Shown: positions 469-20,100 of the stretch, in pieces | Layout of the letters: each line of letters starts with the position of its first letter | How positions within the stretch are numbered: the first letter of the stretch is position 1 | Assembly (NCBI GenBank): GCA_965212015.1 | Contig: OZ243037.1 | Span: forward strand, 480,001 to 544,000 | From: Cenarchaeum sp. | GTDB taxonomy: Archaea > Thermoproteota > Nitrososphaeria > Nitrososphaerales > Nitrosopumilaceae | Direction of reading: 5' to 3' | Length of the DNA stretch: 64,000 nt | Notes under the pieces: generated by a model | What the model was told of the DNA's origin: nothing | Databases searched by the model: none | Seen by the model: the letters and a program-made list of their open reading frames with translations, nothing else | Position numbers and translations under genes: made by a program

Positions 469-506
469 AGATCCGGCCCATCTCAGTACACGCCCAGTCG
501 TGACTA

Positions 507-715
507 GGCGTGAATTTCGCATCATGGGTGTCTTTCAGGCAAGAGTGACACCATGCTGCGGTCTTTTTTGGCTCTGTAATCAGCAGTTGATAGGCAGAGC
601 CGCGTCAAAAACGTCGGTTAATACACAGATATTGCGATCATACGCGTAAAATTGTATGAGGCCACGTCCCACTAGAACCGGGCGTGAATTTTGCATTATG
701 GTTGTCTTTTAGGCA
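507..715. repeat. Dispersed 35-bp direct repeat (507-541 and 681-715)
   Basis: ggcgtgaatttcgcatcatgggtgtctttcaggca vs ggcgtgaattttgcattatggttgtcttttaggca, 31/35 identical. Confidence 0.6.
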
Positions 716-877
716 TGGCAGGTGACCTCGTACGTAAAATTTACCAGCAATCTTAAATAAGATCATACACATACAAAAAACATGTTCGGTAAAAAAAACA
801 AGGAACCCGAGAAGGAAAACGAGGAATTTTATGGAAGCCAGGAAGGACGGCGTCTACTGACAGATACAAATATGGGA

Positions 878-1459: not shown

Positions 1460-1613
1460 ATCAATGGCACCACACCGTGGCGTTTATAAATAACGATTTA
1501 AATAAAGTACATAAATCTCTATAAAGTGAGCTGGTTTTCAACTAAATTCCGGCATTAATCCCCGGGTGCAATCAACCAGCCATACAGCTACGTCGATCAC
1601 AAGTTATTTCACC

Positions 1614-1850
1614 TCACAGACTGCGCTTTAAATAGCGATAGATATCCAAATTGTTTCTGAAATACTCTGATACTGTAATCCACATTTTCTCTGCAGTCTC
1701 GTAATACTCGGAATGGACTAGCTCATATTTGGCCTGTCGCCAGCACTCTTCGATGGTACTGAGTTGTGGTGAGTAAGTTGGAAGATAATACAGGATCAGC
1801 ATCGGCAGGCCTGGGACACTTGGGTTTAGATGCCGCCACCGACTCTGCAA
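1614..1850 (-). pseudogene. IS630-family transposase C-terminal remnant
   Basis: YLPTYSPQLSTIEECWRQAK matches the IS630/Tc1 LPxYSPxLNPIExxW motif; the N-terminus is missing. Confidence 0.75.
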
Positions 1851-2151
1851 TCTTGTATTTGGATCCAGAGTCTTTATTCTTGTCGTTTCCCATATGACAG
1901 GGTAAATGCTACTGCCATATTTATTTTACCTAAAATCAGCCATAAAAAAACGGCAAGAATGCTGTAAGCGTCACGATCACCCTCTCGTCATTATAGGAAG
2001 GTATCCTGCCCCACTGGGAGCCGAGATCATCTGGCCCATCCCCGTGCACATTCCGTCTCCTAGGCACAGATTTCACGCCGCACGGCCCCCTCCCGTACCG
2101 CGGGCCTTTTTAAAATCTTAAATATGCACAATATGCTGACTCTAGTCATGG

Positions 2152-3498
2152 GTGGACGCCTTTGGAGACATGGAGACAAAAGTAGTACCCCTAGACCTTG
2201 CTGAAAACCAGTTTCAAATTTACGGCAAAATCTCGCCGAATTATTCGCACTCGTTTCTCTTCGAGTCGCTGACCGGCCCAGAAGAGCTATCAGAGACCTC
2301 GGTGATGGGCTTTGATCCCGGCGCAATAGTCCGCGGATATTCCGACAGGATAGAGACTACATACAGGGACGGCCGCACAGAGACTGCACCCACCAAAAAC
2401 CCGCTCTCGGAGATAAAAAAGCTGTTCGGGGCCCCCTCTGATGAATCATACAGGTATCTTGGCGGCGCGGTGGGAATGGTAAACTATGACGCCGTACGAT
2501 TAATCGAGGATATGCCGGGGGAGCACCCCACAGTGCCGCTGATGGAGTTTGGAATGTACGACGACGGCATCATGTATGATAACGTGCAAAAAAAGCCGTT
2601 TTACTTTTACCGCGGAACAGACCGCTTTTCTGAGCTAAAAATTACGGAAAACAGCCCATCTGTGAGGGTGTCTGACATTAGAGAGGAGACGGGCAGTAAA
2701 GAGTATCACAGTATGGTAGAGCGCGCAAAAAAATACATACACGCAGGCGACATATTCCAGGTGGTGCTGTCTCGCAGGTTTTCGTTTGACGTCACAGGCG
2801 ACTATCTGGCCATATACGAAAAGCTGCGGGGTACAAACCCGTCGCCCTACATGTACCACCTAAAGCAGGGCAAAAAAACCACAATCGGCGCGTCACCGGA
2901 AATGCTGGTCCGCATAACCGGCAGTACGGTAGAGACATTTCCGATAGCCGGCACTAGAAGGACCGGCAATGACGAGGCCGAAAACAGCAAGCTCGCCCAT
3001 GATCTATTACACGACGAAAAGGAGCTGGCAGAGCACACAATGCTAGTAGACCTGGGCCGCAACGACATTGGGCGCGTCTGCAGATACGGAACCGTTCAGG
3101 TAAGGGAGCTAATGAAGATAAAGAGGTTCAGCCACGTGCAGCACATGGTGACGCACGTGACGGGGACGCTTGACGAGTCAAGGGACATGTTTGATGCCTT
3201 TGCCGCCGTGTTTCCCGCAGGCACGGTCACCGGCGCCCCAAAGGTGCGCGCAATGGAGATAATCGGCGAGCTGGAGGGCCGGATAAGGGGCCCGTATGCC
3301 GGCGCAGTAGGGTACTTTTCGTATAACGGGTGCTGCGACTTTGCAATAGCAATACGGAGCATATTCATAAATGACGGCAGGGGGTTTGTCCAGTCCGGCG
3401 CCGGAATCGTCTTTGACTCTGTGGCGCAAAACGAGTTTGATGAGACGCAGTATAAAGCAGGCGCCATGATGCAGGCACTCAGGGAGGCATCGGATTGA
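2152..3498 (+). CDS. trpE: Anthranilate synthase component I
   Basis: GDIFQVVLS, NPSPYMY, PIAGTR, EHTMLVDLGRND, PAGTVTGAPK and RGPYAGAVGY motifs; first gene of the trp cluster; TTAAATA about 27 bp upstream. Confidence 0.96.
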   Translation: MDAFGDMETKVVPLDLAENQFQIYGKISPNYSHSFLFESLTGPEELSETSVMGFDPGAIVRGYSDRIETTYRDGRTETAPTKNPLSEIKKLFGAPSDESYRYLGGAVGMVNYDAVRLIEDMPGEHPTVPLMEFGMYDDGIMYDNVQKKPFYFYRGTDRFSELKITENSPSVRVSDIREETGSKEYHSMVERAKKYIHAGDIFQVVLSRRFSFDVTGDYLAIYEKLRGTNPSPYMYHLKQGKKTTIGASPEMLVRITGSTVETFPIAGTRRTGNDEAENSKLAHDLLHDEKELAEHTMLVDLGRNDIGRVCRYGTVQVRELMKIKRFSHVQHMVTHVTGTLDESRDMFDAFAAVFPAGTVTGAPKVRAMEIIGELEGRIRGPYAGAVGYFSYNGCCDFAIAIRSIFINDGRGFVQSGAGIVFDSVAQNEFDETQYKAGAMMQALREASD

Positions 3499-4085
3499 GG
3501 TTTCTAATAATAGACAACTATGACTCGTTTGTATACAATATAGCCCAGTATCTCGGCGAGCTGGGAGTCGACTGTACTGTTACCAGAAACGACAAGATTA
3601 CACTAGAACAGATAAGGCGCGAAAAGTACGACGCAATAGTAATCTCGCCGGGGCCCGGAACCCCGGAGGATGAGCGATACTTTGGGATCTGCATGGACGT
3701 GATACGCGAGTGCGGCCCCACCATACCGCTGCTCGGAATATGCCTGGGCCACCAGGGGATAATCCACGCCTTTGGCGGAAAGGTGACAAACGCAGGATGC
3801 ATCAGGCACGGCAAGACCAGTCCGGTCGCGCATACCGGGGCGCCGCTGTTCTCCGGCGTGGCAAACCCGTTTTCCGCCACAAGATACCATTCCCTGGTGG
3901 GCGACAGAACCGTAATCCCCGAGTCCCTCGAGGTCACTGCTACTTCACAGGACGACTCTGAGGTAATGGCCATACGGCACAAGAAATACCTCATCGAGGG
4001 CGTACAGTTCCACCCAGAGTCGATAATGACCGACGAGGGAAAAAAGATACTTGGAAACTTTGTAGGCGAGGTGCGAGACAGGTGA
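3495..4085 (+). CDS. trpG: Anthranilate synthase component II (glutamine amidotransferase)
   Basis: IDNYDSF, SPGPG, LGICLGHQ, RYHSL and GVQFHPES motifs. Confidence 0.96.
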   Translation: MRFLIIDNYDSFVYNIAQYLGELGVDCTVTRNDKITLEQIRREKYDAIVISPGPGTPEDERYFGICMDVIRECGPTIPLLGICLGHQGIIHAFGGKVTNAGCIRHGKTSPVAHTGAPLFSGVANPFSATRYHSLVGDRTVIPESLEVTATSQDDSEVMAIRHKKYLIEGVQFHPESIMTDEGKKILGNFVGEVRDR

Positions 4086-5128
4086 TTGCAGAGTGCATAT
4101 CCGCGCTAAATGGCGGATCGGATCTTTCGTACAAGCAGGCAAAATCCGCCGCACTTGAGATGCTGCGCGGCGGCCTTACAGATGTCGAAGCTCACGAGTT
4201 TTTATCCGGCCTGGCGGCAAAGGGCGAGACTGACGACGAGCTTGCAGGCATGCTAGACGCAATGCGTGACAATGCCGTCCGGATGACCATACGGAACGCC
4301 AATAAAGTGATAGACGTGTGCGGTACGGGCGGCGACGGGCTGGGAACGTTCAACATATCGACTGCGACGGCATTCGTTGTTGCCGCATCCGGTACTGCCG
4401 TGGCAAAGCACGGAAACCGCTCCAGCTCCGGCGGGCTTGGAAGCGCCGATGTATTTGAGTGCCTCGGATGCGAGCTTGACGCATCCCCGCAGCGTTTGTC
4501 CGAAATGCTGGAAAAATTCAACATTTGCTTCATGTTTGCGCAACGGTTCCATCCCGCAATGAAGAATATCGCGCACGTGAGAAAAAAGATTGGCACGCGC
4601 ACGGCCTTTAACATGCTGGGGCCCCTGTGCAATCCCGCATACGTCACAGGCCAGCTGGTAGGCGTGTTTTCAGATAATCTGCTAGAGCGCATTCCGTCTC
4701 TCCTGAAAAGGGGCGGCGCAAAAAGCGTCATGGCGGTAAGATCTGCTGACGGCCTGGATGAGCTATCCACTAGCTCAAAGAACAAAATATGCACAATGCG
4801 CGACGGCAGGACCGTATCTGACGTGATAGACCCGGAAAAGCTTGGCCTGCGACACTCGTCGCTGCGCGACATTCAGGTTGGCACAAAACAGCAGGCCATG
4901 CGAGCATTTGTCTCTGTATTGGAGGGAACCGCAAACACCGCAATGACGCAGACTATTATGTTAAATGCGGCAGCGGCGCTAATCGTGGGCGGCGGGGCTG
5001 CGGATTTTTCCTCCGGAATAGAGATTGCAGATGATGCGATAAAAAGCGGCAGGACTGCCAGGCTGCTGCACGATTTCACAAAGAGTGCGGGTGACATTGT
5101 AAAGCTCGAGGAGATATTGGGAGCATGA
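4082..5128 (+). CDS. trpD: Anthranilate phosphoribosyltransferase
   Basis: DVCGTGGDG, TFNIST, AKHGNRSSS, FHPAMK, RTAFNMLGPLCNP and DGLDE motifs. Confidence 0.96.
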   Translation: MIAECISALNGGSDLSYKQAKSAALEMLRGGLTDVEAHEFLSGLAAKGETDDELAGMLDAMRDNAVRMTIRNANKVIDVCGTGGDGLGTFNISTATAFVVAASGTAVAKHGNRSSSGGLGSADVFECLGCELDASPQRLSEMLEKFNICFMFAQRFHPAMKNIAHVRKKIGTRTAFNMLGPLCNPAYVTGQLVGVFSDNLLERIPSLLKRGGAKSVMAVRSADGLDELSTSSKNKICTMRDGRTVSDVIDPEKLGLRHSSLRDIQVGTKQQAMRAFVSVLEGTANTAMTQTIMLNAAAALIVGGGAADFSSGIEIADDAIKSGRTARLLHDFTKSAGDIVKLEEILGA

Positions 5129-5889
5129 GACACATACTCGAGGAGCTGGTGGAAAACTCGCAGAGGGCCATAAATGACGGCGTATACGACATACGGGACA
5201 GCCTCGAAAAATCCGGAACAAACCTGCCGCAGGCGATAAAAAACGCGCCGCACGCCGCCCTGATAACGGAGATAAAGTTCTCGTCTCCGTCTGCCGGAAC
5301 GATAAGGGCGGCGTCTAGTCCTGCACATATTGCAGAATCAATGGTCGCAGGCGGGGCGTGCGCGCTGTCCGTTCTCACGCAGCCGTATTTGTTTGGCGGC
5401 TCGCCGGAGTATTTCATGCAGGTGCGCAGTACGGTGAATGTGCCGATGCTGATGAAGGACATAATAATAGACAAAATCCAGATAGACGCCGCACGGACCA
5501 TGGGTGCGGACTGTATCCTGCTAATCCAGTCGCTGCTCGACGGGGAGCGCCTGGATAAATACATCAGGTACGGCCACAAAATGGGCCTCGGCGTACTGCT
5601 AGAGGTGCACACTGCAAAAGAGTTTGTCTGCGCGCTAGACACGGATGCGGATATAATCGGCATCAACAACCGCAACCTGGACACGCTGGAGGTGGACACG
5701 GATACGACGGGCAGGATTCTTGCCGGATACGACGGGCAGAGGCATATAATATCTGAGAGCGGCATTGATACCGCACAGGACGTTATGGCGCTCAGAGACG
5801 CCGGCGCCTGCGGCTTTCTTGTGGGTTCGAGCATAATGAAAAGCAATAATATCAAAGACGCCGTAAAAGCGCTGGTGAACGCGTATTGA
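5125..5889 (+). CDS. trpC: Indole-3-glycerol phosphate synthase
   Basis: [28 protein letters not shown] and SESGI motifs. Confidence 0.95.
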
Positions 5890-7064
5890 GATATCCGAAT
5901 AACGGCAGGTTCGGCGAGTTTGGCGGCAGGTACATCCCGGAGACTCTGTTTCCCGCAGTGCAGGAGCTGGAAGAGGCGTACCTGAAGGCCAAGGACGATG
6001 CCGGCTTTAAAAAAGAGCTGAACCGCTATCTTTGCGCGTACGCAGGACGGCCCACGCCGCTGTACCTTGCAGAAAAGCTGACCAGAAAGGTCGGCGGCGC
6101 AAAGATATACCTGAAAAGGGAAGACCTGCTGCACGGCGGCGCGCACAAGATAAACAACACACTCGGGCAGGCGCTGCTGGCAAAAAGGATGAAAAAGAGG
6201 CGCATAATAGCAGAGACCGGTGCGGGCCAGCACGGAGTTGCCACGGCAATGGCGTGCGCATGCCTCGGGATGGATTCCGAGGTATACATGGGGTACAGGG
6301 ATACGGTCCGCCAAAAGCTCAACGTGTTCAGGATGAACCTGCTTGGCGCAAGGGTGCACCCCGTAAGGCTTGGCAGCATGACATTAAAGGACGCAATCAA
6401 CGAGGCCATACGCGACTGGATTACAAACGTAAAGGACACGTACTATCTCTTGGGCTCGGCAGTAGGCCCGCACCCGTACCCCGTAATGGTAAGGGACTTT
6501 CAGAGCGTGATCGGCCAAGAGATAAAAAGACAGATGAATGGGACTCCTGATGCCGTAGTTGCGTGCGTCGGCGGCGGCTCCAACGCGATAGGGACGTTCT
6601 ATCCCCTTATCGGCACGGATGCGCAGCTGGTGGGAGTAGAGGCGGCAGGCGAGGGGCTGGATACCGGAAGGCATTCTGCTGCGCTGTGTGCCGGAAGCAG
6701 GGGCGTACTGCACGGAATGATGACGTATCTGTTACAGGACGAGCAGGGCCAGATAGCAGAGACGCACAGCATATCGGCCGGACTCGACTATCCGGGCGTG
6801 GGCCCCGAGCACGCGCACCTAAAGGAGACGGGGCGCGTAAAATACCGCACGGCAAAAGACGCCGACGTGATTGACGCATTTCTCACACTTACGAGAACCG
6901 AGGGCATAATTCCCGCCCTGGAATCGGCGCACGCGGTGTCCGAGGCGATGAGGCTGGCATCATCCATGCCAAAGTCAGAGTCGGTTATAGTCACGCTGTC
7001 CGGCAGGGGTGATAAGGACGTGGAGATTGTACAGGGGTATCTGGACGGAAATGACAAGGATTAG
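5886..7064 (+). CDS. trpB: Tryptophan synthase beta chain
   Basis: [15 protein letters not shown] (PLP lysine), [26 protein letters not shown] and LSGRGDKD motifs. Confidence 0.97.
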
Positions 7065-7845
7065 CCAGGCGTTTGAGCGGCTGCGCGCCAATGGGGAAAA
7101 GGCGCTCATCACGTATGTAATGGCCGGCCACCTCCCGCAAAGAGACACGCTGTCTGTCCTGCGCGGCATGATAGACGGCGGGGCCGACATTATAGAGCTC
7201 GGCTTTCCGTTCTCAGACCCGCTTGCCGACGGCGGCGTGATTCAGGGGGCAGCAGCTGCTGCGCTAAAGAGGGGCACCAGCATGTCTGACTATTTTGCGC
7301 TGGTAAAAAAGATAAGAAAAGAGACGGATATTCCGCTCGTACTAATGACATACACCAACATACTGTACCGTGCGGGATATTCGAAATTCATCGGTGACGC
7401 AGTAAATGCGGGAATAGACGGCCTCATCTTACCGGACATGTCAATCGAAGAGTCCGCAGAATATACGGATGCGGCAAGGGGAATGGCCGACACCATATTT
7501 CTAGTCTCGCCGAACACTAGCAGAAAAAGGCTGCAGGCGATAGCGAAAAAGTCGACTGGATTTTTGTACCTTGTGGCGGTGTATGGCACCACAGGGGCGG
7601 GCGGCAATGCCGTATTTGCGCCAGATGCCATTCGCAGGGCAAAGAGGACGGTGCGCGGCCTGCCAGTCGGAATCGGCTTTGGCGTTGCAACACCGTCAGA
7701 CGTCAAAAGATACGTGCAGGCAGGTGCGGATGCCGTAATTGTGGGCAGCGCGTTTTTGCGCCTGATAGAGAGGACCGGCAGGGGGGATCTACGGGGTGTA
7801 ATTGCGGCGTTCACAAGGAGCCTAAAGCGGCAGACCAAACCGTGA
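7051..7845 (+). CDS. trpA: Tryptophan synthase alpha chain
   Basis: [27 protein letters not shown] and ADAVIVGSA motifs; the ATG at 7051 overlaps the trpB end. Confidence 0.95.
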
Positions 7846-7931
7846 GGTTATTGCTGCGGCGTATGCGGATCTGCACTGAAAAACCAATACCGGCCTGTAT
7901 AGTCAGGGTGTGAGGAATCCATATTTTGTGT

Positions 7932-8132
7932 AATGATACTTGCTTATAGGGGAAGTGTCATGACATGGAAAGTAATACTTAAATATTTCATGGAATGATA
8001 CTTGCTTATAGGGGAAGTGTCATGACATGGAAAGTAATACTTAAATATTTCATGGAATGATACTTGCTTATAGGGGAAGTGTCATGACATGGAAAGTAAT
8101 ACTTAAATATTTCATGGAATGATACTTGCTTA
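7932..8132. repeat. 62-bp tandem repeat (3 copies plus a 15-bp partial) carrying a TATA-like box and an inverted-repeat operator, upstream of abiEi
   Basis: Unit aatgatacttgcttataggggaagtgtcatgacatggaaagtaatacttaaatatttcatgg starts at 7932, 7994 and 8056; partial copy at 8118. Confidence 0.95.
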
Positions 8133-8145
8133 ACAGGAAAGTATT

Positions 8146-8955
8146 ATGGCACAAAAAGTAAACTTGGAATCAAAGTTAATGCTGACTTTGGAGGAGAAGG
8201 ACATGTCGGTATTTACAACCAATGATGCAAAGGACATCCTAAAGACCACGGATTCGTCTGTCTGGGGCATTCTAAACGGGCTGACGCACAAAAAAAGGAT
8301 CCAGAGAATAGAGCGCGGCAGGTATCTTTTGGTTCCCGCAAGGGCAGGAACAGACATGTACTGGACCGAATATCCCTGGGTAATAGTCCCCCATCTTGTC
8401 GACACATATTATGTTGGATTCTGGACTGCGATGAATTTCTGGGACATGACAGAGCAGATACCGTATACGGTTTTTGTCGCCACTACCAAGAGAAAGCGGA
8501 ATCTGGAGTTTGGAGACCAGAGATTCAAGTTTGTAACGCTGTCGAGTAAAAAATTCTTTGGGTTTGTTGAGAAAAAAGCAAGTAAAGATAAATTTTTCAA
8601 TATATCATCAAGGGAAAAAACGATTGTTGACGGGCTGGCGCATCCGGAATATTGTGGAGGAATTCCGGAGGTGACAAAGGCAATGTGGAGCGTACGAAAG
8701 GAGGTCGACTGGCAGATCGTCCTTGATATGGCAGAAAAAATGAGGATTAACGTGGTGTTAAAGCGGCTGGGCTATCTGCTTTCCATTCTGGATATTGAGG
8801 AGGGGATTTCTCGTAAAATTAAAAAAATAAAAAAACACCCGTATCAATATCTTGATCATGCCACAAGCGGGACAAAGGTCAAAAATTCAAAGGAATACGG
8901 GCTGATAATCAACATGACGGATTATGAATTGCTTGATTGGATGGAACAAAAATGA
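8146..8955 (+). CDS. abiEi: Type IV toxin-antitoxin AbiEi-family antitoxin (wHTH transcriptional regulator)
   Basis: N-terminal wHTH (IQRIERGRYL); YVGFWTAMNFWDMTEQIP, EKTIVD, HPEYCGG and KRLGYLL motifs; ATGA overlap with the downstream nucleotidyltransferase. Confidence 0.88.
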   Translation: MAQKVNLESKLMLTLEEKDMSVFTTNDAKDILKTTDSSVWGILNGLTHKKRIQRIERGRYLLVPARAGTDMYWTEYPWVIVPHLVDTYYVGFWTAMNFWDMTEQIPYTVFVATTKRKRNLEFGDQRFKFVTLSSKKFFGFVEKKASKDKFFNISSREKTIVDGLAHPEYCGGIPEVTKAMWSVRKEVDWQIVLDMAEKMRINVVLKRLGYLLSILDIEEGISRKIKKIKKHPYQYLDHATSGTKVKNSKEYGLIINMTDYELLDWMEQK

Positions 8956-9710
8956 ACGGGCAAACGTTCAGAAAACTGGCAAGAATGCATAAGATACCTC
9001 AAGGAACATTAGAAAAAGATTATGCATTGACAAATCTGTTATCATTAATTTCAGATTTTCCAAAATTGAACAGGATGATTTTCAAAGGAGGCACAGCAAT
9101 AAAGAAAATCTATTTCAAAGATTTCAGATTTTCTGAAGATCTGGATTTTGTCTGCCTAGAGGATATCGTAGATGATTTTATAAACTATATAAAAAACAAT
9201 ATGAAGAATCTTGATGTAGAATTTACAGAGATATCAAATATCGAAAAATTTGGTCACAGCTTTAAGGTCAAATATATCCAGTCCACCGGTGCCATGACAA
9301 GCATCAAGGTTGATTTGAGCCTGCGGGGTGATGTCATGATGGAGCCCGTTACCAGGCCGATATTGCACTTTTATGATACGCTTCAGGATGAGTTTTCCAC
9401 ACCCGTGATGAATCTGGAAGAGATAATGGCGGAAAAAATCAGAGCGATGACATACTCAAAACACCCCAGGCACCTGTACGATATTCAATACCTGTATAAT
9501 CACGGAGTAAGGATCAATTCCAGCATGGTTCGCACAAAAATAAAATTCATCCATAACGAGGATTTTGACATCAATAGATTCAAGCAAGGACTTCCCGAAA
9601 AGGCACAAAAATGGATCGACAATTTGAAGCCGCTCCTACCTGCCGACCCCCCATCATTTGATGATGTCTCAAGGGATGTTCTGGGAATAGTTGCCAACGC
9701 GATGAAATAA
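8952..9710 (+). CDS. abiEii: Type IV TA AbiEii/AbiGii nucleotidyltransferase toxin
   Basis: LEKDY, FKGGTAI, RFSEDLDF, EIMAEKIRA and RHLYDI motifs of DUF1814/AbiEii. Confidence 0.9.
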   Translation: MNGQTFRKLARMHKIPQGTLEKDYALTNLLSLISDFPKLNRMIFKGGTAIKKIYFKDFRFSEDLDFVCLEDIVDDFINYIKNNMKNLDVEFTEISNIEKFGHSFKVKYIQSTGAMTSIKVDLSLRGDVMMEPVTRPILHFYDTLQDEFSTPVMNLEEIMAEKIRAMTYSKHPRHLYDIQYLYNHGVRINSSMVRTKIKFIHNEDFDINRFKQGLPEKAQKWIDNLKPLLPADPPSFDDVSRDVLGIVANAMK

Positions 9711-9819
9711 GGACGTCTTGCGCCGGGCAGCAGACGGGGGTTTTACTGCGTAATCGAGGTGTTTTGGGATTGAATTTGCAGCCACGCCTCGTGCCTGTAG
9801 TTCGTCAACTTGGCAGAAT

Positions 9820-10137
9820 CTATTTGTGATGTGGAGCATCTTCTACCCAAGCTGGCCTAGTATCGAAATGTGGACAACATTCTTGAATTATGGCATCTTT
9901 ATGCTCAGATTCTATTTTCATTGTTCTTAAATCCACTTCCATTCGATCAATTTGTCGAATTAATTCTATGTTTTTAGAATTTGAATCTACAGTTATTGTA
10001 TATGGAACAACGCCAGATATATTTGACATGTTTTTTTTAATTTTCTCCACTTCAGTCTGAATAGTATCGTTAATTATCGACAACTCATTTTTTAACTTTT
10101 CTTCAATCTCCTTATTGTAAACGTATTCTATCACCAT
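9820..10137 (-). CDS. Hypothetical coiled-coil protein
   Basis: ORF-track 9820..10170. The ATG at 10137 lies about 22 bp after a TTTAAATA box and is the likelier start. Confidence 0.5.
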   Translation of the reverse strand: MVIEYVYNKEIEEKLKNELSIINDTIQTEVEKIKKNMSNISGVVPYTITVDSNSKNIELIRQIDRMEVDLRTMKIESEHKDAIIQECCPHFDTRPAWVEDAPHHK

Positions 10138-10218
10138 GACTGAGAAACAGTCAACATGATATTTAAACATATATTTAGTGGGTTCTGTATAATCTTCGAG
10201 GGCTAGGCATGGAAAAAA

Positions 10219-10973
10219 TTACTCGGAAATCCTGTAAAGGGCGGCGTTCTGGATCAGAGTATTCCATTTGTTGGCGCCATCCATCAGAATTAGGGCCTCC
10301 ATGCTGGCAAACAGGTATTTTTGCACTCCGCCTACTTTGATGTATATCTCATCTGCCCTTACCGTGAATCTGTTGGCAGTTCTTGTGACGATTCCATCCA
10401 GATAGTCCGATATCTTCCAGGAATACTCTGATATCCAGTTGTAAATGGTCATGTGGTTTACCTTGATTCCCATTAGCTCAAAATGATCCGCTATTCTTCG
10501 GACAGACATCTTGGAGTAATACATCTGTAATGCCTGCGTTATGATCTCCGGACTGAATTGCTTCTTTTCAAATCCAAAATTTGCTGTAAATTTTCTCTTG
10601 CAATCTAGGCATTTGAATATGCGAATTTTGCCGTCTTTTCTCTTTCTAAATCCATCTTTTTTGAGATTGTCAGAATCACAGAATTTGCAGAGTTTGAGCT
10701 CTGATCTTTCCATTATCCTAAAAGGGTTGTTCTTGTAGCATTTGTTTTGCTTCAAATTTTCAAGCACGGCATGGATGTGCTTGCAGTCGGATCGGCTAAA
10801 CTGGTTATCCGGACATTCACAGATTAGTCCCCATTTGTACTGGTAACAATGTAGGACTTTGGGGGATCAATTTCAGACTGCACTCTGAACTTGTCAGTAT
10901 CAAACTGTGATACGTGGTTTAGAAGTTGTTTAGCCTGCTGTGTCCTTGATTTTCTCGTCTTTTTTGTTCTCAT
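10219..10973 (-). pseudogene. IS6-family transposase with SWIM and zinc-ribbon domains; frameshifted and internally deleted
   Basis: ATG at 10973 (MRTKKTRKSR...), frameshift near 10830-10840, then SWIM CECPD...CKHIHAV, zinc ribbon CKFC...FKCLDC, HTH (MSVRRIA...VNHMTIYNWI) and the first DDE motif ADEIYIKVGGVQKYLFASM. It then jumps directly to the C-terminal NKWNTLIQNA. Confidence 0.85.
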
Positions 10974-11060
10974 ACTTACCTACTATTGGGGCTAATTACT
11001 ATATAAATTTGCCTTCTAAAAGGGTTAAATGTTTAATAATGCGAAAAACAACCATATCGC

Positions 11061-11273
11061 ATGGCAATAAGAACAAAAGCGATCAACGGATCCGAATATC
11101 TCTATTACATCTATTCTGCGAATGGCAAAAAAACGGATGTGTATTGCGGGCCATCATCCAAGCCGGAATCAAGAAAAAAGGCGTTAAACTATGAGATCGA
11201 CAATTTGAAGAAACTGGCCACTGAAATATCCAATAAGATTAAATCGATGGAAAAGGAAGTGAAAAACCTGTAA
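11061..11273 (+). CDS. Small basic beta-hairpin/coiled-coil protein, translationally coupled to mod
   Basis: 70 aa MAIRTKAINGSEYLYYIYSANGKKTDVYCGP..., resembling small archaeal mobile-element DNA-binding proteins (inference); TAATG overlap with the mod start. Confidence 0.65.
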   Translation: MAIRTKAINGSEYLYYIYSANGKKTDVYCGPSSKPESRKKALNYEIDNLKKLATEISNKIKSMEKEVKNL

Positions 11274-13259
11274 TGAAGCCCAAAGGCAAGCCTAAAATAA
11301 AGTCTCGTAGAAAGCCCCGTGGTATGAGCCGTATGAGTCTCCAAGAGTCTCCAAGAGTCTCCAAGAGTCTCCAAGAGTCTCCAAGAGTCTCATAAGGAGA
11401 CTCGAAAACCCAGTTATGCAAACTGGTCGAAAAACGAATTAATTAATGAAGTCCAAAAACTACGAAAGCGAAAAAAATATGGCCTAGTCTGGGATGAAGA
11501 AAAAACCAAGGAAACTTTTGAGAAAAATGCCCAGAACAAATTACCAATTCTAAAAGAGATTGCCAAAAACTCGATTGGAAGTGATTCTAAGAGGCCAACC
11601 AATATTCTGATTGAGGGTGACAACTATCATGCACTTTCCGTTTTGAACTATACACATAAAGGAAAGATAGATGTTATTTACATTGATCCACCATATAACA
11701 CAGGTGACGAATCATGGAAATATAATAATAATTATGTAGATGGAAACGATGGTTTCAAACACAGTAAATGGATATCATTAATGGATAAAAGATTACGTTT
11801 AGCAAAAAATTTATTAAAAACTGATGGAATAATATGCATAACAATCGATAATCATGAACTTCATAATTTATTACATATTTTAACCGATATTTTTTTTAAT
11901 AAAGAAATCATAACTACTGTGATTGAACATAATTTAAGAGGAAAACGTGGAAATAATTTTGCATTAACTCATGAATATGCAATATGGATCTTAAATGGGA
12001 ATAAAGATCTAATAACTAAGTTACCTGAAATTGGATCTGATGTTAGACGTAATTTACGAAAAACTGGAGGTGATCCTAATAGATCCGATTCACCTTCAAT
12101 GTTTTATGGAATTGAAGTTAATAAAAAAACGTTAGAAATTGTAAATGTTACTTTTCCTTTATCATTAAACGAAAAAATACCCAAACACAAAAATCCCAAA
12201 ACAGAAATGATTTGGCCTATAGATTCTGAAGGTAATGAAAAGCGATGGTATTATGGTCATCGTAGAATATTGAAATCTGCCAAAATAAAAGAAGTATATG
12301 CAAAGAAAATTAAAAATATTATACAAATACATTATTATATTTCAGGAAAACCAATTAGACGTAAATCTATTTGGACAGGACCTAAATATGATGCAAGTAC
12401 ATATGGAACAGAATTACTTACTGAAATTATTGGTGAAAATGATTTTCCATATCCAAAAAGCATTCATGCAGTTAAAGATTGTATATCTTCAATGAATAAT
12501 AATAAAAATGCAGTAATTCTAGATTTTTTTGCTGGCTCTGGAACTACTGGTCATGCAGTTTTAGAATTAAACAAGGAAGATAATGGAAATAGACAATTTA
12601 TATTATGTACAAACAATGAAAATAAGATTTGTACTGAGATATGTTATCCTAGAATAAAAAAAGTGATTAAAGGATATTCATTTAATGGAACTTATAAAAA
12701 ATGTCTCTATGAACAAAAATTTACAATGACTGTTCTAAAAAATATCGATCTCATATTTGAGAAAATCAATGAAATACAGAATAAGAAAGAATATGATGAT
12801 TTTGAAATAAAAATAGAATATCAAAATATTAAATTATACGGGAAGATGTATATTAATGACAAAAAAGATAGCCTTGAAGGAAATCTTAAATATTTTAAAA
12901 CTGATTTTATAGATTGGGATCATCACACAAAACAGAACAAAAAGAAACTTGTAGAACAATCTACCGAAATGCTGTGTCTAAAAGAGAATTGTTTTGAACT
13001 AGTGAAAAGCAGTAGTAAGTTCAAAGTATTCAAAAACAATCAGAAATGGCTCGGAGTAGTTTATCATCGAACCGGCGTCGAACCCTTCAAGATATGGCTA
13101 AAGTCTAACAAATCAACGACGAAGATTAACACCTACGTGTTTCCTCCCAAGGACGAGGTTAATGATGATGAATTTCATGATGTGATAAAATCAGTGAATT
13201 TGAAGCCCATACCATCGGTCATACTCAATGTGTATAGGAGAATATTCGATCATGTTTAG
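11273..13259 (+). CDS. mod: Type III R-M DNA methyltransferase Mod (beta class), currently frameshifted at a 10-bp repeat tract
   Basis: KKYGLVW, LIEGDNYHAL, IYIDPPYNTG, HSKWISLM, FPYPK and LDFFAGSGTTGHAV motifs. The Mod frame is open from 11337, but the upstream ATGs (11273/11324/11333) are in another frame that stops at TAA 11393. Confidence 0.9.
11335..11391. repeat. Perfect decanucleotide simple sequence repeat (GAGTCTCCAA)5 plus GAGTCTC in the 5' end of mod
   Basis: Read directly: gagtct followed by ccaagagtct x5, then c. Confidence 0.97.
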
Positions 13260-15417
13260 TTTGAAGGAATATCAGGAAAAAGCTGTAAATGAATTAGTAG
13301 AAAAAATAAGTGGATATCTTTCTCAGAATAATAAAACATGTGTATTCAGATCACCTACAGGATCCGGAAAAACAATTATGATGGGTGAGGCTATAAAAAT
13401 ACTTGTAGAAAAGCACAAAAATTCAAATGATATTGCATTTATCTGGATAGCCGTACACAAGTTACATGATCAAAGTAAGAAAAGATTAGAAAGACACTAT
13501 GAAGACTCTCAGATCATAACTTGCTCGCTTTTCGAAGAATTAGAAGACAATCAGATACAGAGTGGGGAGATATTGTTCTTAAACTGGCACAGCATAAACC
13601 AAAAAGACAATATTTACATCAGAGAAAATGAGAGAGAATTTACTCTATCTAAAATTGTAGAAAATACTAACAATGCTGGCAGAGAAATAATCGTGATAAT
13701 CGACGAAAGCCACCATACTGCGGATTCTAAGAAATCTAGGGAATTAATAAGACAGATTGCACCACGTGCTACAATTAAAGTGTCTGCCACACCGACCATA
13801 TCTGGAACTGATGATCTCGTATCGGTGGATGTGGACAAGGTAAAAACTGAAAAAATGATAAAAAAATCCATTCATATCAATCATGAGGTTTCTGAGAACA
13901 ATGATCCAACAGCTGACGAGCTAATCCTCAGACATGCTCTAGATAAGAGAATAGAATTGAAGCAACTCTATGAAAGCGAAAGATCTGATGTCAATCCATT
14001 AGTCTTGATCCAATTATCTGATTTACATCCAGGCATGCCAGATAAAAAAGAAATTCTAATCAAAATTCTTGATTCTGAATTCGGAATAAATATCAATAAT
14101 GGTAAATTAGCCATATATCTTTCAGACAATGATGACAAGATAAATCTTGAAAATATTGAAAAAAATGACAACGAGGTTGAAGTCTTGATATTCAAGCAAG
14201 CCATTACGGTTGGATGGGATTGTCCCCGTGCTGCAATATTGGTTCTGTTCCGGGAATGGAAAGAGGTTAGATTTTCTATGCAAACGGTAGGACGAATAAT
14301 CCGGATGCCTGAGATTATATATTATGATAGTAATGAGCTGAATCATGCATATGTATACGCCAATTATCCGACAATTCAGATCATTGAAGAAGTTGCAGAT
14401 GATTATTTTACAATATATGATGCAATTCGAAAAATAGAATTTGATGATACACTTAACCTGAAATCAATATACAGAAAACGTAAAAATGAGCTCACTCGTT
14501 TTAATATGCAATTTAATGACATCTTTGATTCCATAATCAAAAAACAGCAATTACACACTAAACTTTTATTGAAAGTACCAAGATTGAACCATAATATATT
14601 AACAAACATAGAAATTGATGAATTGCGTGAAGCCACGATCACTGATGGTAACATGCTAACGAGGGATCTGAATCCAGAAGAGATTGAGAATCTATTCAAT
14701 CGATTTATTATTGAGAGTGTAAAACCGTTTGCAGAACAACGTTCCAGTGAAATTCTTACAAACTGTATGGAGCGATTCTTTGAGGAAAAACTACATATTG
14801 ATGATTATGATAATATGCATTTCATTACAATGCATCCCAAAAATCAATCATACTTTAGACAAGTGTTTCGTGAAGCCAAAGACAGATATACTAGGGATAT
14901 AGTAGACCAAGTCCAGCCGGAAATTGAATCTTTTGATTGGAATGTTCCAGAACAAATGACCTATACCGATACATATGAAATAAAAAATTACAAAAAATAT
15001 GTCATGGAGCCCGCATATGTAAGAATAGATTCAGAACTGGAGGAAAAATTTATAGATTTATTGGAAGATGACAACAAAGTAAAATGGTGGTTTAAAAATG
15101 GAGTCAATGACAGAAAATGCTTTGCCATAAAACACCGTGATTCTTTGGACTCTGAAGACAGGGAGTTTTATGTCGATTTTATAGTATGTATGAAGGATGG
15201 TAGGATTGGATTGTTTGATCCCAAGGATGGCATGACGGCCCGTCTTGCTAAATCCAAGGCAGAAGCACTAACACGGTACATCCATGACAATTCATCAAAG
15301 AATTTGTTTGGTGGAATTGCAATACTGGATAAGAGTGAATGGATGTACAACGATCAAGACGAATACAATTACGATCCCAATGATTTTTCAGGCTGGAAAC
15401 CTATCATTTTGAATTAA
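13252..15417 (+). CDS. res: Type III R-M restriction subunit Res (SF2 helicase plus PD-(D/E)XK nuclease)
   Basis: LKEYQ, SPTGSGKT, IIDESHH, VSATP, GWDCPRA, QTVGRIIR and C-terminal FYVDFIV...FDPK motifs; overlaps the mod stop. Confidence 0.9.
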   Translation: MFSLKEYQEKAVNELVEKISGYLSQNNKTCVFRSPTGSGKTIMMGEAIKILVEKHKNSNDIAFIWIAVHKLHDQSKKRLERHYEDSQIITCSLFEELEDNQIQSGEILFLNWHSINQKDNIYIRENEREFTLSKIVENTNNAGREIIVIIDESHHTADSKKSRELIRQIAPRATIKVSATPTISGTDDLVSVDVDKVKTEKMIKKSIHINHEVSENNDPTADELILRHALDKRIELKQLYESERSDVNPLVLIQLSDLHPGMPDKKEILIKILDSEFGININNGKLAIYLSDNDDKINLENIEKNDNEVEVLIFKQAITVGWDCPRAAILVLFREWKEVRFSMQTVGRIIRMPEIIYYDSNELNHAYVYANYPTIQIIEEVADDYFTIYDAIRKIEFDDTLNLKSIYRKRKNELTRFNMQFNDIFDSIIKKQQLHTKLLLKVPRLNHNILTNIEIDELREATITDGNMLTRDLNPEEIENLFNRFIIESVKPFAEQRSSEILTNCMERFFEEKLHIDDYDNMHFITMHPKNQSYFRQVFREAKDRYTRDIVDQVQPEIESFDWNVPEQMTYTDTYEIKNYKKYVMEPAYVRIDSELEEKFIDLLEDDNKVKWWFKNGVNDRKCFAIKHRDSLDSEDREFYVDFIVCMKDGRIGLFDPKDGMTARLAKSKAEALTRYIHDNSSKNLFGGIAILDKSEWMYNDQDEYNYDPNDFSGWKPIILN

Positions 15418-15728
15418 GTAAAATCATTTTTTCATATTTTGGGATGATTTTCCCCCATGCCTAGCCCTCGAAGATTATACAGAACCGTACACGGATCAGT
15501 TTATTAGGCAATAAATCTACTTTAAATCATGTCAGACAAAGAAGAAAAATCGGATGTATCCGCAAAAAATGCGGCAAGTCATTCTGGATCGGCCCCGGCA
15601 AATGAGGGTCTCTTTGCAGGCGGCAGAGTGGCCCCGTTGGGTGCAGATGCAAAACCCGTACCACCAAAAAAGAAATGATCCGTGTTTTTTGATATGCTTG
15701 ATCATATGATTGATTTTTTTGTTCTGTG

Positions 15729-16504
15729 TTGCTCTGTGTCACAAGCTGTCTAATTTTTCCCAGCGTAAACTAATCTAGGCTGCTTGTACACATAATCCAA
15801 CCCAAAAAGCTTTAGATCATGACTGCACGACCACGTCGTGAGTAAAAATTCAGATTATGATCGCAGGTTAAAGGACCGTGGAACAATCCATATCGACAAA
15901 CGCGTCCTGAAATCATTCGAGAGGGATCGACACGGGATGAACAAGGGAAAGACAGGACGCAGATTCCTATATTCTGACGAAATGATTACTGTTCTGGCAC
16001 ACATACATCTCTACTTTAGACTACCATACAGACAAACGCAGGGCCTTGCAGAATCGTTGTTTGGAAAGCATACTACAGTGCCATCGTATTCTACCATCTG
16101 CAAACGGATCAACAAGCTGGATTTGGATCTTACCGCAGGCAGAAAGACACACGGTACAATCGTAATCGCAATAGACAGTACGGGAATGAAGATAACAAAC
16201 ACGCCGTCATATCCGCGCCGGATGGCAGTCAGAATTCAAAAACGTGACTATTCGGAATGGAGGAAATCCTCCAGATATGGAAAATGGTGGCTTGTCGAAT
16301 CTCTGTTCTCCGCGATAAAGAGAATGTTTGGAGAATCGGTCATGGCGCACAAAAAAGAGAACATGCTGCATGAGATGGCGCTAAAGATGGCCATATACAA
16401 TATGATGGTGCTGGCCGCATGACGTCATACCGGTGTGGGTTGTATTGCTCTGGCACGGGTGGGAGGATCACGATATGAGGTAAGGGAGTTGTGACACAGA
16501 GCAA
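15729..16504 (+). mobile_element. Internally deleted IS5-family (IS903-group-like) element with 16-bp TIRs
   Basis: TTGCTCTGTGTCACAA at 15729-15744 and its exact reverse complement at 16489-16504. Confidence 0.8.
15838..16422 (+). pseudogene. IS5-family transposase with an in-frame internal deletion
   Basis: YSDEMI, LPYRQTQG, PSYSTICKR and AIDSTGMK are joined directly to the C-terminal YGKWWLVESLFSAIKRMFG; the middle DDE segment is missing. Confidence 0.8.
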
Positions 16505-16530
16505 TTGATGGATTTAATATCATGATCCGT

Positions 16531-16914
16531 TCAATCCAAATCAATCATAATATTCCTGTAAATCTTTTCGACCAAATTTTTGTCTATGTCTGAGATATTG
16601 TAAGTTTGAAGTTCGTCTTTATTTTTAAATTCATTTCGTGATTTTATTTCCATTTTATCTAATTTGAATGACAAGTGAAAAATCAGATATTGACAAGTGC
16701 TTTCATTAATTTTCAAAGACAAGATGACAACGCCCCTATTATTCTGCCATGGACTATAATTTGTTGTAATTTCAGTTCCGTTGGATATACATGCTGCATG
16801 ATCCATAAACATCTGAAAAATATTTTGAGGGGCAAAATCAGACTCGTTTTTTGATTCTGCTAGTTTTTTGATGTATTTTAGTAATTTATCTCTCAATTCA
16901 GAGCAATCGGCCAT
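16531..16914 (-). CDS. Hypothetical protein
   Basis: AT-rich ORF (track 16531..17082). The ATG at 16914 (MADCSELR) follows a TTTAAATA box by about 23 bp. Confidence 0.5.
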   Translation of the reverse strand: MADCSELRDKLLKYIKKLAESKNESDFAPQNIFQMFMDHAACISNGTEITTNYSPWQNNRGVVILSLKINESTCQYLIFHLSFKLDKMEIKSRNEFKNKDELQTYNISDIDKNLVEKIYRNIMIDLD

Positions 16915-17180
16915 ATCTAGGGGTATTACGATCGAATATTTAAATGTTGACGTGATATGCCGATATGAGACACTTCTTATCATGACTATAGTCAAACGCA
17001 TAAATAATTTGAAACTGGCATAACCCTCATGAAATATTTCATCACGTCTAACGAATACTTCTTTGTCCTGAAATACTCGCACAGTGCATCCCGCACACGG
17101 GATGCGGCCCCGTCATACACGCAATGTCCGGCGGATCGGCCCCCAGATAAATGGCGCATGGCCGGAAAAATCCTGCCGCA

Positions 17181-20100
17181 CTAGGGTTCCGTACTGGCGC
17201 CGTCTGTGTCGAATATTATTATGGTCTCCTTCAGGTCGTCAAACGCCGGTTCCGTATAGATTTTCCCGTACAGGGCGTCGCGGATTCGCTCCATGTTGGT
17301 AGTGTGCCAGTCGAGCTTTTCTGCAAAGGCATCACACGCCCTGTTGTCAATGTCCCTGCACGATGACACCATGCTCGGAGTCGGCCTGTCCACATAGCGC
17401 CACGTGTCCCACTCGTTCTTGGTCCAGGTGTCGCCGAACTGGTCAGTCCAGATATCTGCGAGCTTGTCAGTCCTGGTCAGCTGTATTACCAGCGGTTCTG
17501 ACTGGGAGGCGCTTTTCGTGCTGCGCGTCACTACTGGCAGCTCGTTGAGCGTCTCGCCCTGCACCAGAATTCCCTCGTTGAGATAGTTTATCGTGCCTCG
17601 CAGCTTGTAGTCAGTTGCGTGTATGGCAAACGGCACGTGGTACATTTCCTCGCGGAACAATACGCCCGTTATGTCAAGCTGTATGCAGTCAAGCTCGGGA
17701 TCGCCTGGCAGGCACTTTACCTGTGACACTGCAAATGTGGCGTTCTGGCCTATTACATTGTTCTTGTTCGTATAGCTTATCTTGTCTATAGAATGGGTGG
17801 ACGGTTCCGTATAGTTGCGCACCAAATCTATTGTGATTACTGCCTCTGCACTGTTTATCGGCGCGCCAATGTCCGGCACGCTAAATGCCAGCTCGAACTG
17901 TTTTACGCCCCGCTGTGCGTACGTCTTTAGCGCAAAGTCGTGGGTGGAGTTTGTCTGGATTGTCTGCCTGGTATAGTTTACGTGGTAATCCAGCACGTCT
18001 GTGCACCGCCCGTCAATCGAATACCCGCATGAGACTATCGGGTCGCCCGTAATGTGCGAGCTTCCAAATGTGGGCTTTGTGCGCCATCCGGGGTCGCCTG
18101 TCCTGTCATCGGAGCTGGTGCTGAGCGCACGTGTAAAGTTCTTGAGCGTGTTTGTTACATCATCCTTGATGAATCCATCGGTTTGGGTATACGTTACCTG
18201 CGGCGTATGATATTCGGGTATGGGATCCTTAAAGTGCAGAATCACGCTTTGGTTGTTGGATAAGGCTATATTGTCGGCATACATCGGGCCGGGGATGCTC
18301 TCAATGGTCATGTTGGATACCTTAAAGTCGGTGACATTTACAGAGTCAATATTGTTTACAGGCTCGGACATGGCAAGCAGGATTGCAGTGGAATTCATCA
18401 TCCTGACGCCGGTTACTGTCGGATCCGTAAAGTCAAATTCTAGATCAATCATGTTTGAGTCGATGTTGGGATTTCCTTCTTGATTCATTACGCTGCCTGC
18501 AGGTATGTATACTGGCACCATTCCGTCGTCTCCGTCGTAAGTTAGAGTAAAGTTGAACATATCAGAAGGCGAGGTATTAGACGCGGTACCAAATATAGAG
18601 CCAGGAGTCGATATTTCATATATATCTATCATAAAGCCAAGATCATTAATACCCATAGTGGTGCCATCCATAGTATTGCCGCCCACATTAACGGCAGTTT
18701 CATTAAAGCCAATTACATTCACATCAAACATTACGCTAAACTGTACAATTCCGTTATTTCTTTTTAATTCATCTGTGGTGGATAGTATTGGTTTCGGACC
18801 CACATCGTTTACGGAATCAACAGTAAGAATGAACTCATCGCTTGCCGTTTCCCCGTCATCGTCGCGGGCCGTAACGGTGATTGTCGCGCTTCCAAACTCC
18901 ATGCTTGTAGACGAAATTTCCAGCATGTTGTTTACAATACTTACTGTTGCCGCGTTGCCGACCGATGTCGCATCATACGTCAGTACATCCTCATCCACAT
19001 CCGTAAAGTGGCTCTCAACTTCTATCTCAAAGGAGTCAAAGTCCTCGTCCCTCATGATATCATCGAATTGCGTCACCAGTGTGGGCGGATCATTTACCGG
19101 CGTCACCGTCAGTACAAACTCATCCTGTATGGTGGCCTCGCCGTCAGTTGCCGATATTGTCAGTGTGGCCGCACCGTTCACGTCCTGTATGGAGCCGATC
19201 GTCAGCGTATTCCCAGAGACGGTCGCCGTGACCAGATCATCCTGTCCCGTTACATCATACGTCAGCGCGTCCTCGTCCGGATCGCTGAAGTGACCAGACA
19301 GGTCTATCGTAAAGGCCTCAAAGTCCTCGTCCCGTGTGAGGTCTGGCAGCGATGTATCCAGTACCGGCACATCGTTTACGGAATCAACAGTAAGGATGAA
19401 CTCATCGCTTACAGTTTCCCCGTCCCCATCGGTTGCCATAACGGTGATTGTCGCGCTTCCAAACTCCATGCTTGTCGCGGTGATCTCTAGCATGTCATCG
19501 TTTGTGATTACAACAGACACCACGTCCACATCCGATGTCGCACCATACGTCAGCTCGTCCCCGTCCACATCCGTAAAGTGGCTCTCAACTTCTATCTCAA
19601 AGGAGTCAAAGTCCTCGTCCCTCACGATGTTATCGAACGGCGTCACCAGTGTGGGCGGATCATTTACCGGCGTCACCGTCATCTCAAAGCTGTCCTGTAT
19701 CGATTCTGGCCCGTCGCTTGCCGTTATCGTCAATGTGGCCGCACCGTTCACGTCCTGTATGGAGCCGATCGTCAGCGTGTTTCCAGAGACGGTTGCCGTG
19801 ACCACGCCGCTCTGGCCGCTCACAGTGTATTCCAGGCCGTTCCCGTCAGGATCACTGAAATGATTCGACAGGTCTATCGTAAAGGCCTCAAAGTCCTCGT
19901 CCCGTGTGAGGTCTGGCAGCGATGTATCCAGTACCGGCACATCGTTTACGGAATCAACAGTAAGGATGAACTCATCGCTTACAGTTTCCCCGTCCCCGTC
20001 GGTTGCCATAACGGTGATTGTCGCGCTTCCAAACTCCATGCTTGTCGCGGTGATCTCTAGCATGTCATCGTTTGTGATTACAACAGACACCACGTCCACA

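Follow-up and report, generated by a model that had tools for sequence, protein, structure and literature searches.

The stretch of DNA analysed here (the window, 64,000 nucleotides) covers positions 480001-544000 of the single 1,764,220-bp contig of a Cenarchaeum genome (G000) and carries a type III restriction-modification operon whose methylase gene, mod, contains a perfect tandem repeat of a 10-nt unit directly behind its start codons. In the assembly the number of repeat units places the start codons and the conserved part of Mod in different reading frames, and k-mer depth indicates that the number of units differs between sequencing studies. We consider it probable that the tract serves the type III restriction-modification system of this archaeon as a contingency switch operated by slipped-strand mispairing. 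The host is an ammonia-oxidising archaeon, because the genome contains archaeal small subunit (SSU; 1457.5 bits) and large subunit (LSU) ribosomal RNA (rRNA) as well as AmoA (9.4e-119), and lacks McrA; a methanogen as host was ruled out as McrA was not found in the genome and AmoA is present.

The repeat tract and the reading frames of mod

The tract occupies positions 11335-11391 on the plus strand and consists of five full copies of GAGTCTCCAA followed by GAGTCTC; Tandem Repeats Finder describes it by a period of 10, 5.7 copies, 100% matches, no indels and a score of 114. It is far beyond chance, being one of three such perfect repeats in the whole 1,764,220-bp genome, and it lies far above the criterion of the bacterial survey discussed below (at least 3 units for units of at least 3 nt). 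Upstream of it three ATGs (11273, 11324 and 11333) lie in a common frame that encodes a leader (11273-11334, plus strand, MKPKGKPK...) that resembles the N-termini of homologues (M.ANGKPKK) as judged by eye, passes through the tract and terminates after a total of 40 aa at the TAA at 11393-11395 in the five-copy (OFF) allele. The Mod frame is shut by the TGA at 11334-11336 and is then open from 11337 to 13259 on the plus strand (640 codons), with conserved sequence from approximately 11391; its earliest ATG, GTG or TTG is the TTG at 11643, 3' of the LIEGDNYHAL motif. A non-triplet repeat inside the open reading frame (ORF) and 3' of the start codon thus sets the frame. According to our hand arithmetic 1, 4 or 7 full copies join the ATG frame to the Mod frame and 5 or 6 copies do not, the five-copy frame ending at 11393 and the frame of a six- or three-copy allele approximately 15 codons later. 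The tract contains no stop codon in any coding-strand frame, the three frames being rotations of one 30-nt cycle.

These features had been described in a first-pass annotation made from the sequence by a model. On re-reading the sequence each of its coordinates held (the TAATG overlap, the three ATGs, the TAA at 11393 and the TGA at 11334), and we likewise found no in-frame ATG before the N-terminal motifs of Mod and, on the coding strand, no stop in the repeat. Our hand calculation agrees with its frame arithmetic, according to which 1, 4 or 7 copies restore Mod.

Mod matches the Pfam family N6_N4_Mtase (5.6e-27) and the solved type III Mod structures of Mbo45V (7dsu, 7.7e-45, query residues 35-451), 6k0w (2.2e-35) and EcoP15I (4zcf, 1.5e-24). 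DPPY occupies residues 117-120 and FAGSGTTGHA 398-407 (numbering of P0001), and two further features of a type III system were found, namely a beta-class N6/N4 amino-methyltransferase with DPPY before FxGxG and a co-oriented adjacent ResIII gene. The latter, res (13252-15417, plus strand), shares 8 nt with the 3' end of mod and encodes a ResIII/SF2 helicase-type restriction subunit of 721 aa (Pfam ResIII, 3.2e-23), with weaker matches to SWI2_SNF2 and DEAD, which are other SF2 helicase families, and a sub-threshold match to Helicase_C. We placed its start at the ATG at 13252 because homologues of 713-771 aa align to query residues 9-726. The C-terminal 300 residues of Res are covered by no Pfam or NCBIfam model, and searches of Res against NCBIfam and against solved structures gave no match.

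Nine homologues of full length, 52-62% identical, are colinear with the Mod frame from the Y..WS motif behind the tract to the last residue. DPPY and FAGSGTTGHA do not vary in this alignment, and all invariant motifs are kept in the Mod frame. The residues encoded by the tract form an insertion that is missing from all nine aligned homologues, whose Met is located 3-10 residues before Y..WS (18 in P0005). A start at the TTG at 11643 would remove 18 invariant columns (L35-V102), including the EGDNYH block, and the form of the protein held for this genome in the protein collection (P0004, 492 aa) begins after DPPY. Because the Mod frame and Res align over their full length with homologues, mod and res are otherwise intact, the tract being the sole lesion in the operon. 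The claims of the first-pass annotation on the operon itself were therefore substantiated: the assignment as a type III mod-res pair in an archaeon by Pfam, the matches to solved Mods and the archaeal rRNA, the integrity of the rest of mod and all of res by the full-length alignments, and the OFF phase of mod in the assembly by the copy number of the in-ORF 10-nt repeat, which is alone responsible for it.

In the proposed switch, slipped-strand mispairing at replication would add or remove whole 10-nt units and, as 10 is not a multiple of 3, each step would place the body of Mod in another of the three frames with respect to the ATG. The frame reached with 1, 4 or 7 full copies would yield a full-length Mod of approximately 658 aa with a tolerated Ser/Pro/Gln-rich insert at its N-terminus, and the other two would stop after 40 to approximately 55 codons, so that the sequenced five-copy allele would be OFF. 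Type III Res needs Mod to find its target DNA, and owing to this dependence switching off Mod would silence methylation and restriction together without self-cleavage. Slippage as the mechanism, its reversibility and the activity of the ON state are inferred; any benefit may lie in defence bet-hedging, relief from cost, control over gene flow or gene regulation. Were Mod also to control the expression of a set of other genes, the locus would be a phasevarion sensu stricto. MutS domain V was not found in the 99.7%-complete genome by a search whose control detected the domain in 11 of 14 reference genomes and which did not extend to MutL and EndoMS/NucS; absence of MutS-type mismatch repair would fit poor repair of slippage loops and would favour repeat instability.

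Tract length in public sequencing runs

Four public runs from two studies (coded P1 and P2) hold the locus, all of them as Logan contigs with k=31. Contigs built from 31-mers are unable to bridge the 57-nt periodic tract, and copy numbers were inferred from depth, not from a spanning contig or read. In the three well-covered runs (X1, X2 and X3) the left contig ends at 11364 and the right one begins at 11362, i.e. each reaches 30 nt into the tract, and the periodic 31-mers collapse to one contig of 33 nt and one of 37 nt. For n full copies the 37-nt contig comprises seven phases occurring n-2 times and the 33-nt contig three phases occurring n-3 times, as checked on the window, so that five copies predict a depth of 2x the flanks for the 33-nt contig and of 3x for the 37-nt contig. 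In X1 (study P1) these ratios are 2.84x and 4.02x, implying approximately 6 copies. The two runs of study P2 gave 0.49x and 1.32x (X2, approximately 3.4 copies) and 0.54x and 1.41x (X3, approximately 3.5 copies). The fourth run, X4, was excluded, its depth in the tract being 0-7 with no cover at 11361-11411.

The relative depth hence differs three- to six-fold between the studies, well beyond the noise of approximately 20% on the single-copy boundary contig, which indicates that tract length is polymorphic between samples or studies, a difference obtained from k-mer depth and not from counted alleles. The first-pass annotation had named an invariant five copies, or exactly four, in all populations as findings that would speak against a switch; by k-mer depth the mean copy numbers of the two studies differ. 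A mixture, for example of 3 (OFF) and 4 (ON) copies, would fit the non-integer values of X2 and X3, at a depth noise of at least 20% and in samples that may or may not be clonal. No joint contig of the kind that would signal two copies or fewer was reported in the runs.

The strain sampled by X2 and X3 (strain B) differs from the window at two positions in 11273-12300, namely 11317 (C>T), which is the sole single-nucleotide polymorphism in the leader stretch, and 11618. Both differences are synonymous in the proposed frames, the codons having been read by hand. Over a wider range, strain B shows 12 differences and one inserted base in the 565 nt from 10800 to 11364 and one difference in the 939 nt from 11362 to 12300, a pattern that points either to a boundary of recombination close to the tract or to mod being strongly conserved.

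Repeat tracts elsewhere in the genome and in relatives

A census of perfect repeats over the whole genome yielded three arrays with a non-triplet unit of 4-16 nt in at least four copies. The genome has five N6_N4 methylase genes, of which three are large and lie beside a ResIII gene, and the three repeats are distributed over these three methylase-ResIII pairs, one at the 5' end of each operon. In the operon of the window (mod1-res1) the 5.7 copies of GAGTCTCCAA are located inside mod, 3' of the ATGs, and are out of frame (OFF) in the assembly. In the second, mod2-res2, (AGAC)10 lies in a short ATG-led ORF 160 nt 5' of mod2, the whole tract, (AGAC)10.5, spanning L026:8654-8695 (genome 1692653-1692694). 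There mod2 (L026:6679-8532, minus strand) is followed by res2 (L026:4732-6678, minus strand) and by a third ORF of 115 aa with a TnsA-like endonuclease domain (L026:4382-4729, minus strand). mod2 has a CTG where its homologues have the start ATG (MTKDLKK...), and a tract of 8, 11 or 14 units would bring the short ORF upstream to its end at a TGA that overlaps this CTG, which suggests, speculatively, a repeat-dependent translational coupling; the form of mod2 in the protein collection is cut to 514 aa. In the third operon, res3-mod3, four copies of CCCCTCTCAT, again a 10-nt unit (L060:7106-7145; genome 1443105-1443144) form codons 15-28 of a 997-aa ResIII gene (L060:4194-7187, minus strand), which precedes an 883-aa N6_N4 methylase (L060:1546-4197, minus strand), and this tract is in frame (ON) in the assembly.

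The long-unit arrays of the genome are a 17-mer in 9 copies and one 19-mer present as arrays of 14 and 12 copies. The 19-nt minisatellites were set aside, as no consistent link emerged for them, the array of 12 lying upstream and the array of 14 downstream of its neighbours. The former (L061:7223-7450; genome 756222-756449) is located approximately 105 nt 5' of an operon of a SNF2/ResIII-NOV_C helicase, a DUF1156 methylase and DUF499; the latter (L062:2217-2482; genome 324716-324981), in opposite orientation, lies near a split paralogue of that helicase, on its downstream side. Both arrays have GC-rich, hairpin-like left flanks in common.

A second class of tracts is formed by homopolymers. 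Among the 57 homopolymers of at least 9 nt in the genome 10 consist of G or C, all of them of length 10 or more, and each of the 10 lies at the 5' end of a gene for a large protein. Nine of these proteins start with a signal-peptide-like segment, which was not seen in the tenth, of 5168 aa. Base composition predicts approximately 0.8 G/C runs of at least 11 nt by our own arithmetic, and 8 are present. Seven of the tracts belong to paralogues of 1971-3861 aa with a signal-peptide-like N-terminus (L053-L059; genome 92299, 391530, 398078, 414674, 820353, 1006388 and 1017640), in which TTTATAAGCA is followed by two to three more bases, the G tract, seven bases and the ATG. The tracts measure 10, 11, 11, 11, 11, 12 and 13 nt between near-identical flanks, and a TATA-like box, TTTATAA, stands 6 bases before the G tract. 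This arrangement points to a near-leaderless start, and the G tract would set how far it lies from the TATA box, so that the tract may act on the spacing between promoter and start. We know of no description in bacteria of a poly-G tract acting in the manner proposed here for archaeal promoter-to-start spacing. The TATA/poly-G motif of the seven paralogues was not found in four other genomes of the genus. The 17-mer array (genome 91520-91672) lies approximately 630 nt 5' of one of the poly-G promoters.

The three remaining G/C tracts differ in position. A G12 in the window (55665-55676, minus strand), preceded by a TATA-like AAAATA, lies 15 nt 5' of the ATG at 55649 of the 5168-aa ORF (40143-55649, minus strand), which is situated between genes for Ig-like giant proteins. 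A C10 (genome 228427-228436) falls, in frame, within codons 9-12 of a gene whose product measures 1021 aa and has a signal-peptide-like N-terminus. A C11 (genome 1142722-1142732) stands between two ATGs and a frame of 1766 codons that starts signal-peptide-like, and is out of frame in the assembly.

The simplest explanation of these observations is a slipped-strand contingency switch on the type III system, with mod1-res1 as one member of a repertoire that includes the two further methylase-ResIII operons and many surface proteins. The broader proposal is that the archaeon possesses a multi-locus contingency system such as is regarded as typical of bacterial pathogens, with three methylase-ResIII operons gated by tracts of 4-nt or 10-nt units and G/C tracts of 10-13 nt gating ten or more large proteins, seven of them via a poly-G spacer between TATA box and start. 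In that case repeat-driven bet-hedging of defence and cell surface would have an independent origin in Archaea and a wide distribution in the family. This proposal is tentative, and we give it slightly less than even weight.

Of 400 other genomes sampled from the family, 14 contain a Mod homologue at E<=1e-40, and their fetched loci were scanned for non-triplet repeats. Four of the 14 (G370, G200, G326 and G001) have non-triplet tracts in or just 5' of a methylase, as does G002, a genome of the same genus that was found separately. In G370 eleven copies of the 14-mer ACTCCAAGCTCTCC (L050:1203-1360) separate an ATG from a methylase frame that stays open across the tract, with a later ATG also present; this 14-mer has CTCCAAG in common with the decamer of the window. 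The same genome has a G16 (L042:911-926) that splits another methylase with ResIII downstream, and in its homologue in G326 a G11 (L037:792-802) occupies the same site, so that poly-G at one site is in frame in G326 and out of frame in G370. In G200 six copies of the 10-mer CATTCCTTCT (L052:1015-1074) lie in a short ORF 205 nt 5' of a mod-res pair. The two genomes of the same genus have a G17 (G002, L008:2695-2711) that splits a Mod right after FAGSGTT and a C9 (G001, L044:2800-2808) 18 nt 5' of a likely TTG start.

Scanning collections of genomes and metagenome contigs for two tandem units of the decamer of the window gave three and five loci, respectively. All eight were rejected as relatives, since BLAST detected no similarity to the window beyond the repeat. 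Seven of them hold just 2-3 perfect copies, and one of these seven, L024, extends as an imperfect array of approximately 5 units in a low-complexity, eukaryote-like context. On an unrelated low-GC metagenome contig (L021:1300-1375) approximately 7 perfect copies and degenerate ones are intergenic, flanked by a C2H2 zinc-finger ORF on one side and an integrase-like ORF on the other, and not at a mod gene.

Alternative explanations, known systems and surroundings

Several observations weigh against a frameshift switch at mod. The tract is never spanned by a read or contig, allele lengths come from depth, and the ON allele (4 or 7 copies) was not seen. Contig depth is a coarse measure, several depth values look rounded, and in X1 the single-copy boundary contig is at 1.2x the flanks, which sets the noise at 20% or more. 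The estimate of approximately 6 copies from X1 conflicts with the 5 copies of the assembly, and the likeliest alleles of X1, 5 and 6, are both OFF, as in a dead gene. In mod2 and several relatives the tract is 5' of an independent start and need not act by frameshift. Overlapping matches to G11 number 464 in G002 and 129 in G370, rendering poly-G in mod weak evidence in these two genomes, and only 6 in G326 and 4 in G200. Finally, the decamer occurs in none of the nine aligned homologues and in none of the loci from the 14 family genomes, so that there is no cross-species series of alleles. The first-pass annotation had proposed to look for 1-, 4- and 7-copy alleles in related genomes; the collections contain no close orthologue with another copy number: the loci of the relatives lack the tract and the best homologue is 62% identical.

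Some of these points would be expected if mod were a plain pseudogene, killed by one repeat expansion in a decaying acquired island, with the length differences between strains reflecting neutral drift. The allele of the assembly is OFF, as are the 5-6 copies that fit the X1 depth, the island has 31-40% GC compared to approximately 54% elsewhere in the window, and the neighbourhood is full of truncated transposases, where pseudogenes are expected. We nevertheless regard a pseudogene as unlikely: apart from the tract mod and res have no lesion over 621 and 721 codons, both between-strain differences in mod are synonymous, and the tract is perfect, whereas dead repeats gather point changes. In addition, all three methylase-ResIII operons have a tract at the 5' end, one of them in frame, and three independent accidents would not be expected.

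Mod could also be made regardless of the tract, via a downstream start or ribosomal frameshifting, in which case the tract would merely tune its level or its N-terminus. The TTG at 11643 precedes the Pfam domain, and three relatives (L050, L052 and L044) as well as mod2 have a methylase start of their own after the tract. In mod1, however, there is no ATG, GTG or TTG in frame between 11337 and 11643, use of this TTG would delete the 18 invariant columns, whose EGDNYH block aligns with structured parts of solved Mods, and a known frameshift signal was not seen on inspection that included no dedicated test for one, so that we hold tract-independent synthesis to be quite improbable. An assembly or sequencing artefact, with a true tract of 4 or 7 copies and a gene that is stably ON, appears more improbable still. 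Assemblers can mis-size tandem repeats, and the depth in X1, which is possibly the source sample, does not fit 5 copies; yet it fits approximately 6 copies and not 4, and X2 and X3 give a clearly different, non-integer value, so that one fixed number cannot explain all runs. Each of the three alternatives is contradicted by part of the evidence, and the slipped-strand switch remains the explanation we favour.

Textbooks treat repeat-driven phase variation of restriction-modification systems as a trait of host-adapted bacteria. The phase-variable mod genes (phasevarions) of Haemophilus influenzae, Neisseria and Helicobacter pylori resemble the archaeal locus in having a non-triplet repeat in the 5' part of the mod frame, one of three phases ON and a type III mod-res pair. 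In contrast to them, the locus described here belongs to an ammonia-oxidising archaeon of free-living type, uses a 10-nt unit, has an intact res and is located in a remnant bounded by inverted repeats. The main survey of such genes (PMC5909438, Atack et al. 2018) screened 3805 REBASE mod genes for units of 1-9 nt and obtained 662 candidates, with archaea unmentioned in its main text. In the text available, this survey lists modA, modB, modD and modH among the characterised phase-variable groups and reports a CAGCGAC[n] tract for one mod gene of Shiga-toxigenic E. coli and GA[n] tracts for mods of Mycoplasma bovis PG45. These genes likewise have the repeat after the start codon, at the 5' end of mod; their units are 7 nt and 2 nt, respectively, compared to 10 nt in the archaeal gene, and fragment-length analysis demonstrated their variation within strains, in place of the indirect k-mer depth used here. 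The name of Mbo45V, the closest solved structure to Mod, points to M. bovis PG45, though not necessarily to one of its mods with GA[n]. The contingency loci of Campylobacter and Neisseria, in the text available on them, share with the present genome a repertoire of several loci, in which one small genome combines G/C tracts at the 5' ends of surface-protein genes with restriction-modification genes that carry repeats, and differ from it in that the seven archaeal paralogues have G10-13 between a TATA-like box and the ATG.

The first-pass annotation knew of no described archaeal case, and literature searches likewise turned up none. A repeat-switched archaeal mod is not described in the available text of PMC10609329, PMC11033074, PMC5909438, PMC13076061, 10.1101/2025.10.21.683753, PMC11868660 and PMC3315296, the supplementary list of 662 mod genes of PMC5909438, possibly with archaeal entries, lying outside this coverage. 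In the parts available, two reviews of archaeal restriction-modification bring up phase variation solely as background from bacteria or among their references, and a review of the field from 2025 leaves the distribution of such loci across archaea to future work as an open question. A 2025 preprint states that contingency loci have been examined in archaea, its sole archaeal reference on this point being a 1987 paper on simple repeats in archaebacterial genomes. What is new here is the same logic as in bacterial phase-variable mods in a new domain of life, with a longer unit and hints of a version acting on a promoter spacer.

The locus thus provides a concrete archaeal candidate in ecologically important ammonia oxidisers, with sister loci throughout the genome. 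Its 10-nt unit is outside the range of 1-9 nt covered by the main survey. If the proposed switch is real, an archaeal population would form a mosaic of cells in different methylation and restriction states, with a bearing on virus-host dynamics, gene flow and the interpretation of metagenomic methylomes, and surveys for phase-variable genes should take in longer units and archaeal genomes. In that case annotation pipelines probably also mis-call such genes, as two of the methylases are recorded in truncated form (492 and 514 aa).

Directly upstream of mod, a 70-aa ORF (11061-11273, plus strand) to which no function could be assigned ends in a TAA that overlaps the mod ATG (TAATG, 11271-11275); its Pfam matches are all sub-threshold, and NCBIfam gave none. 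A TATA-like box, TTTAATAA (11032-11039, plus strand), 21 nt 5' of the ATG at 11061, is a candidate promoter of the small-ORF/mod/res operon as judged from sequence. A scan for sigma-70-type promoters, a model inapplicable to archaea, returned 0 sites.

The mod-res operon is enclosed by a pair of terminal inverted repeats with identical, perfect 32-nt cores, the left one beginning GGTTCTGTATAATC (10181-10212, plus strand) and the right one at 15455-15486 (minus strand). They bound a unit of 5306 bp (10181-15486) that contains mod-res and a truncated transposase remnant of 182 aa (10219-10767, minus strand), which has weak Pfam matches to HTH and IS66 N-terminal families and ends soon after the motif DEIYIKVGG. 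The genome has a single further copy of the repeat end, with 4 mismatches, at 1050931. The motif DEIYIKVGG may be IS6-like, and the first bases of the inverted repeat presumably resemble the ends of IS6-family elements. The restriction-modification system thus looks like one carried in, or inserted into, an IS6-like element, if this family assignment is right. No tRNA that could serve as island boundary was found in positions 1-20000 of the window. The low-GC island also comprises a 62-nt direct repeat in 3.4 copies (7921-8132), an AbiEi/AbiEii toxin-antitoxin pair (8146-8955 and 8937-9710) and a DDE transposase fragment (15838-16422). In the remainder of the window the genes code for giant proteins (1476-5168 aa) of Ig-like and cadherin-like type, the domain scan covering all but the 5168-aa one.

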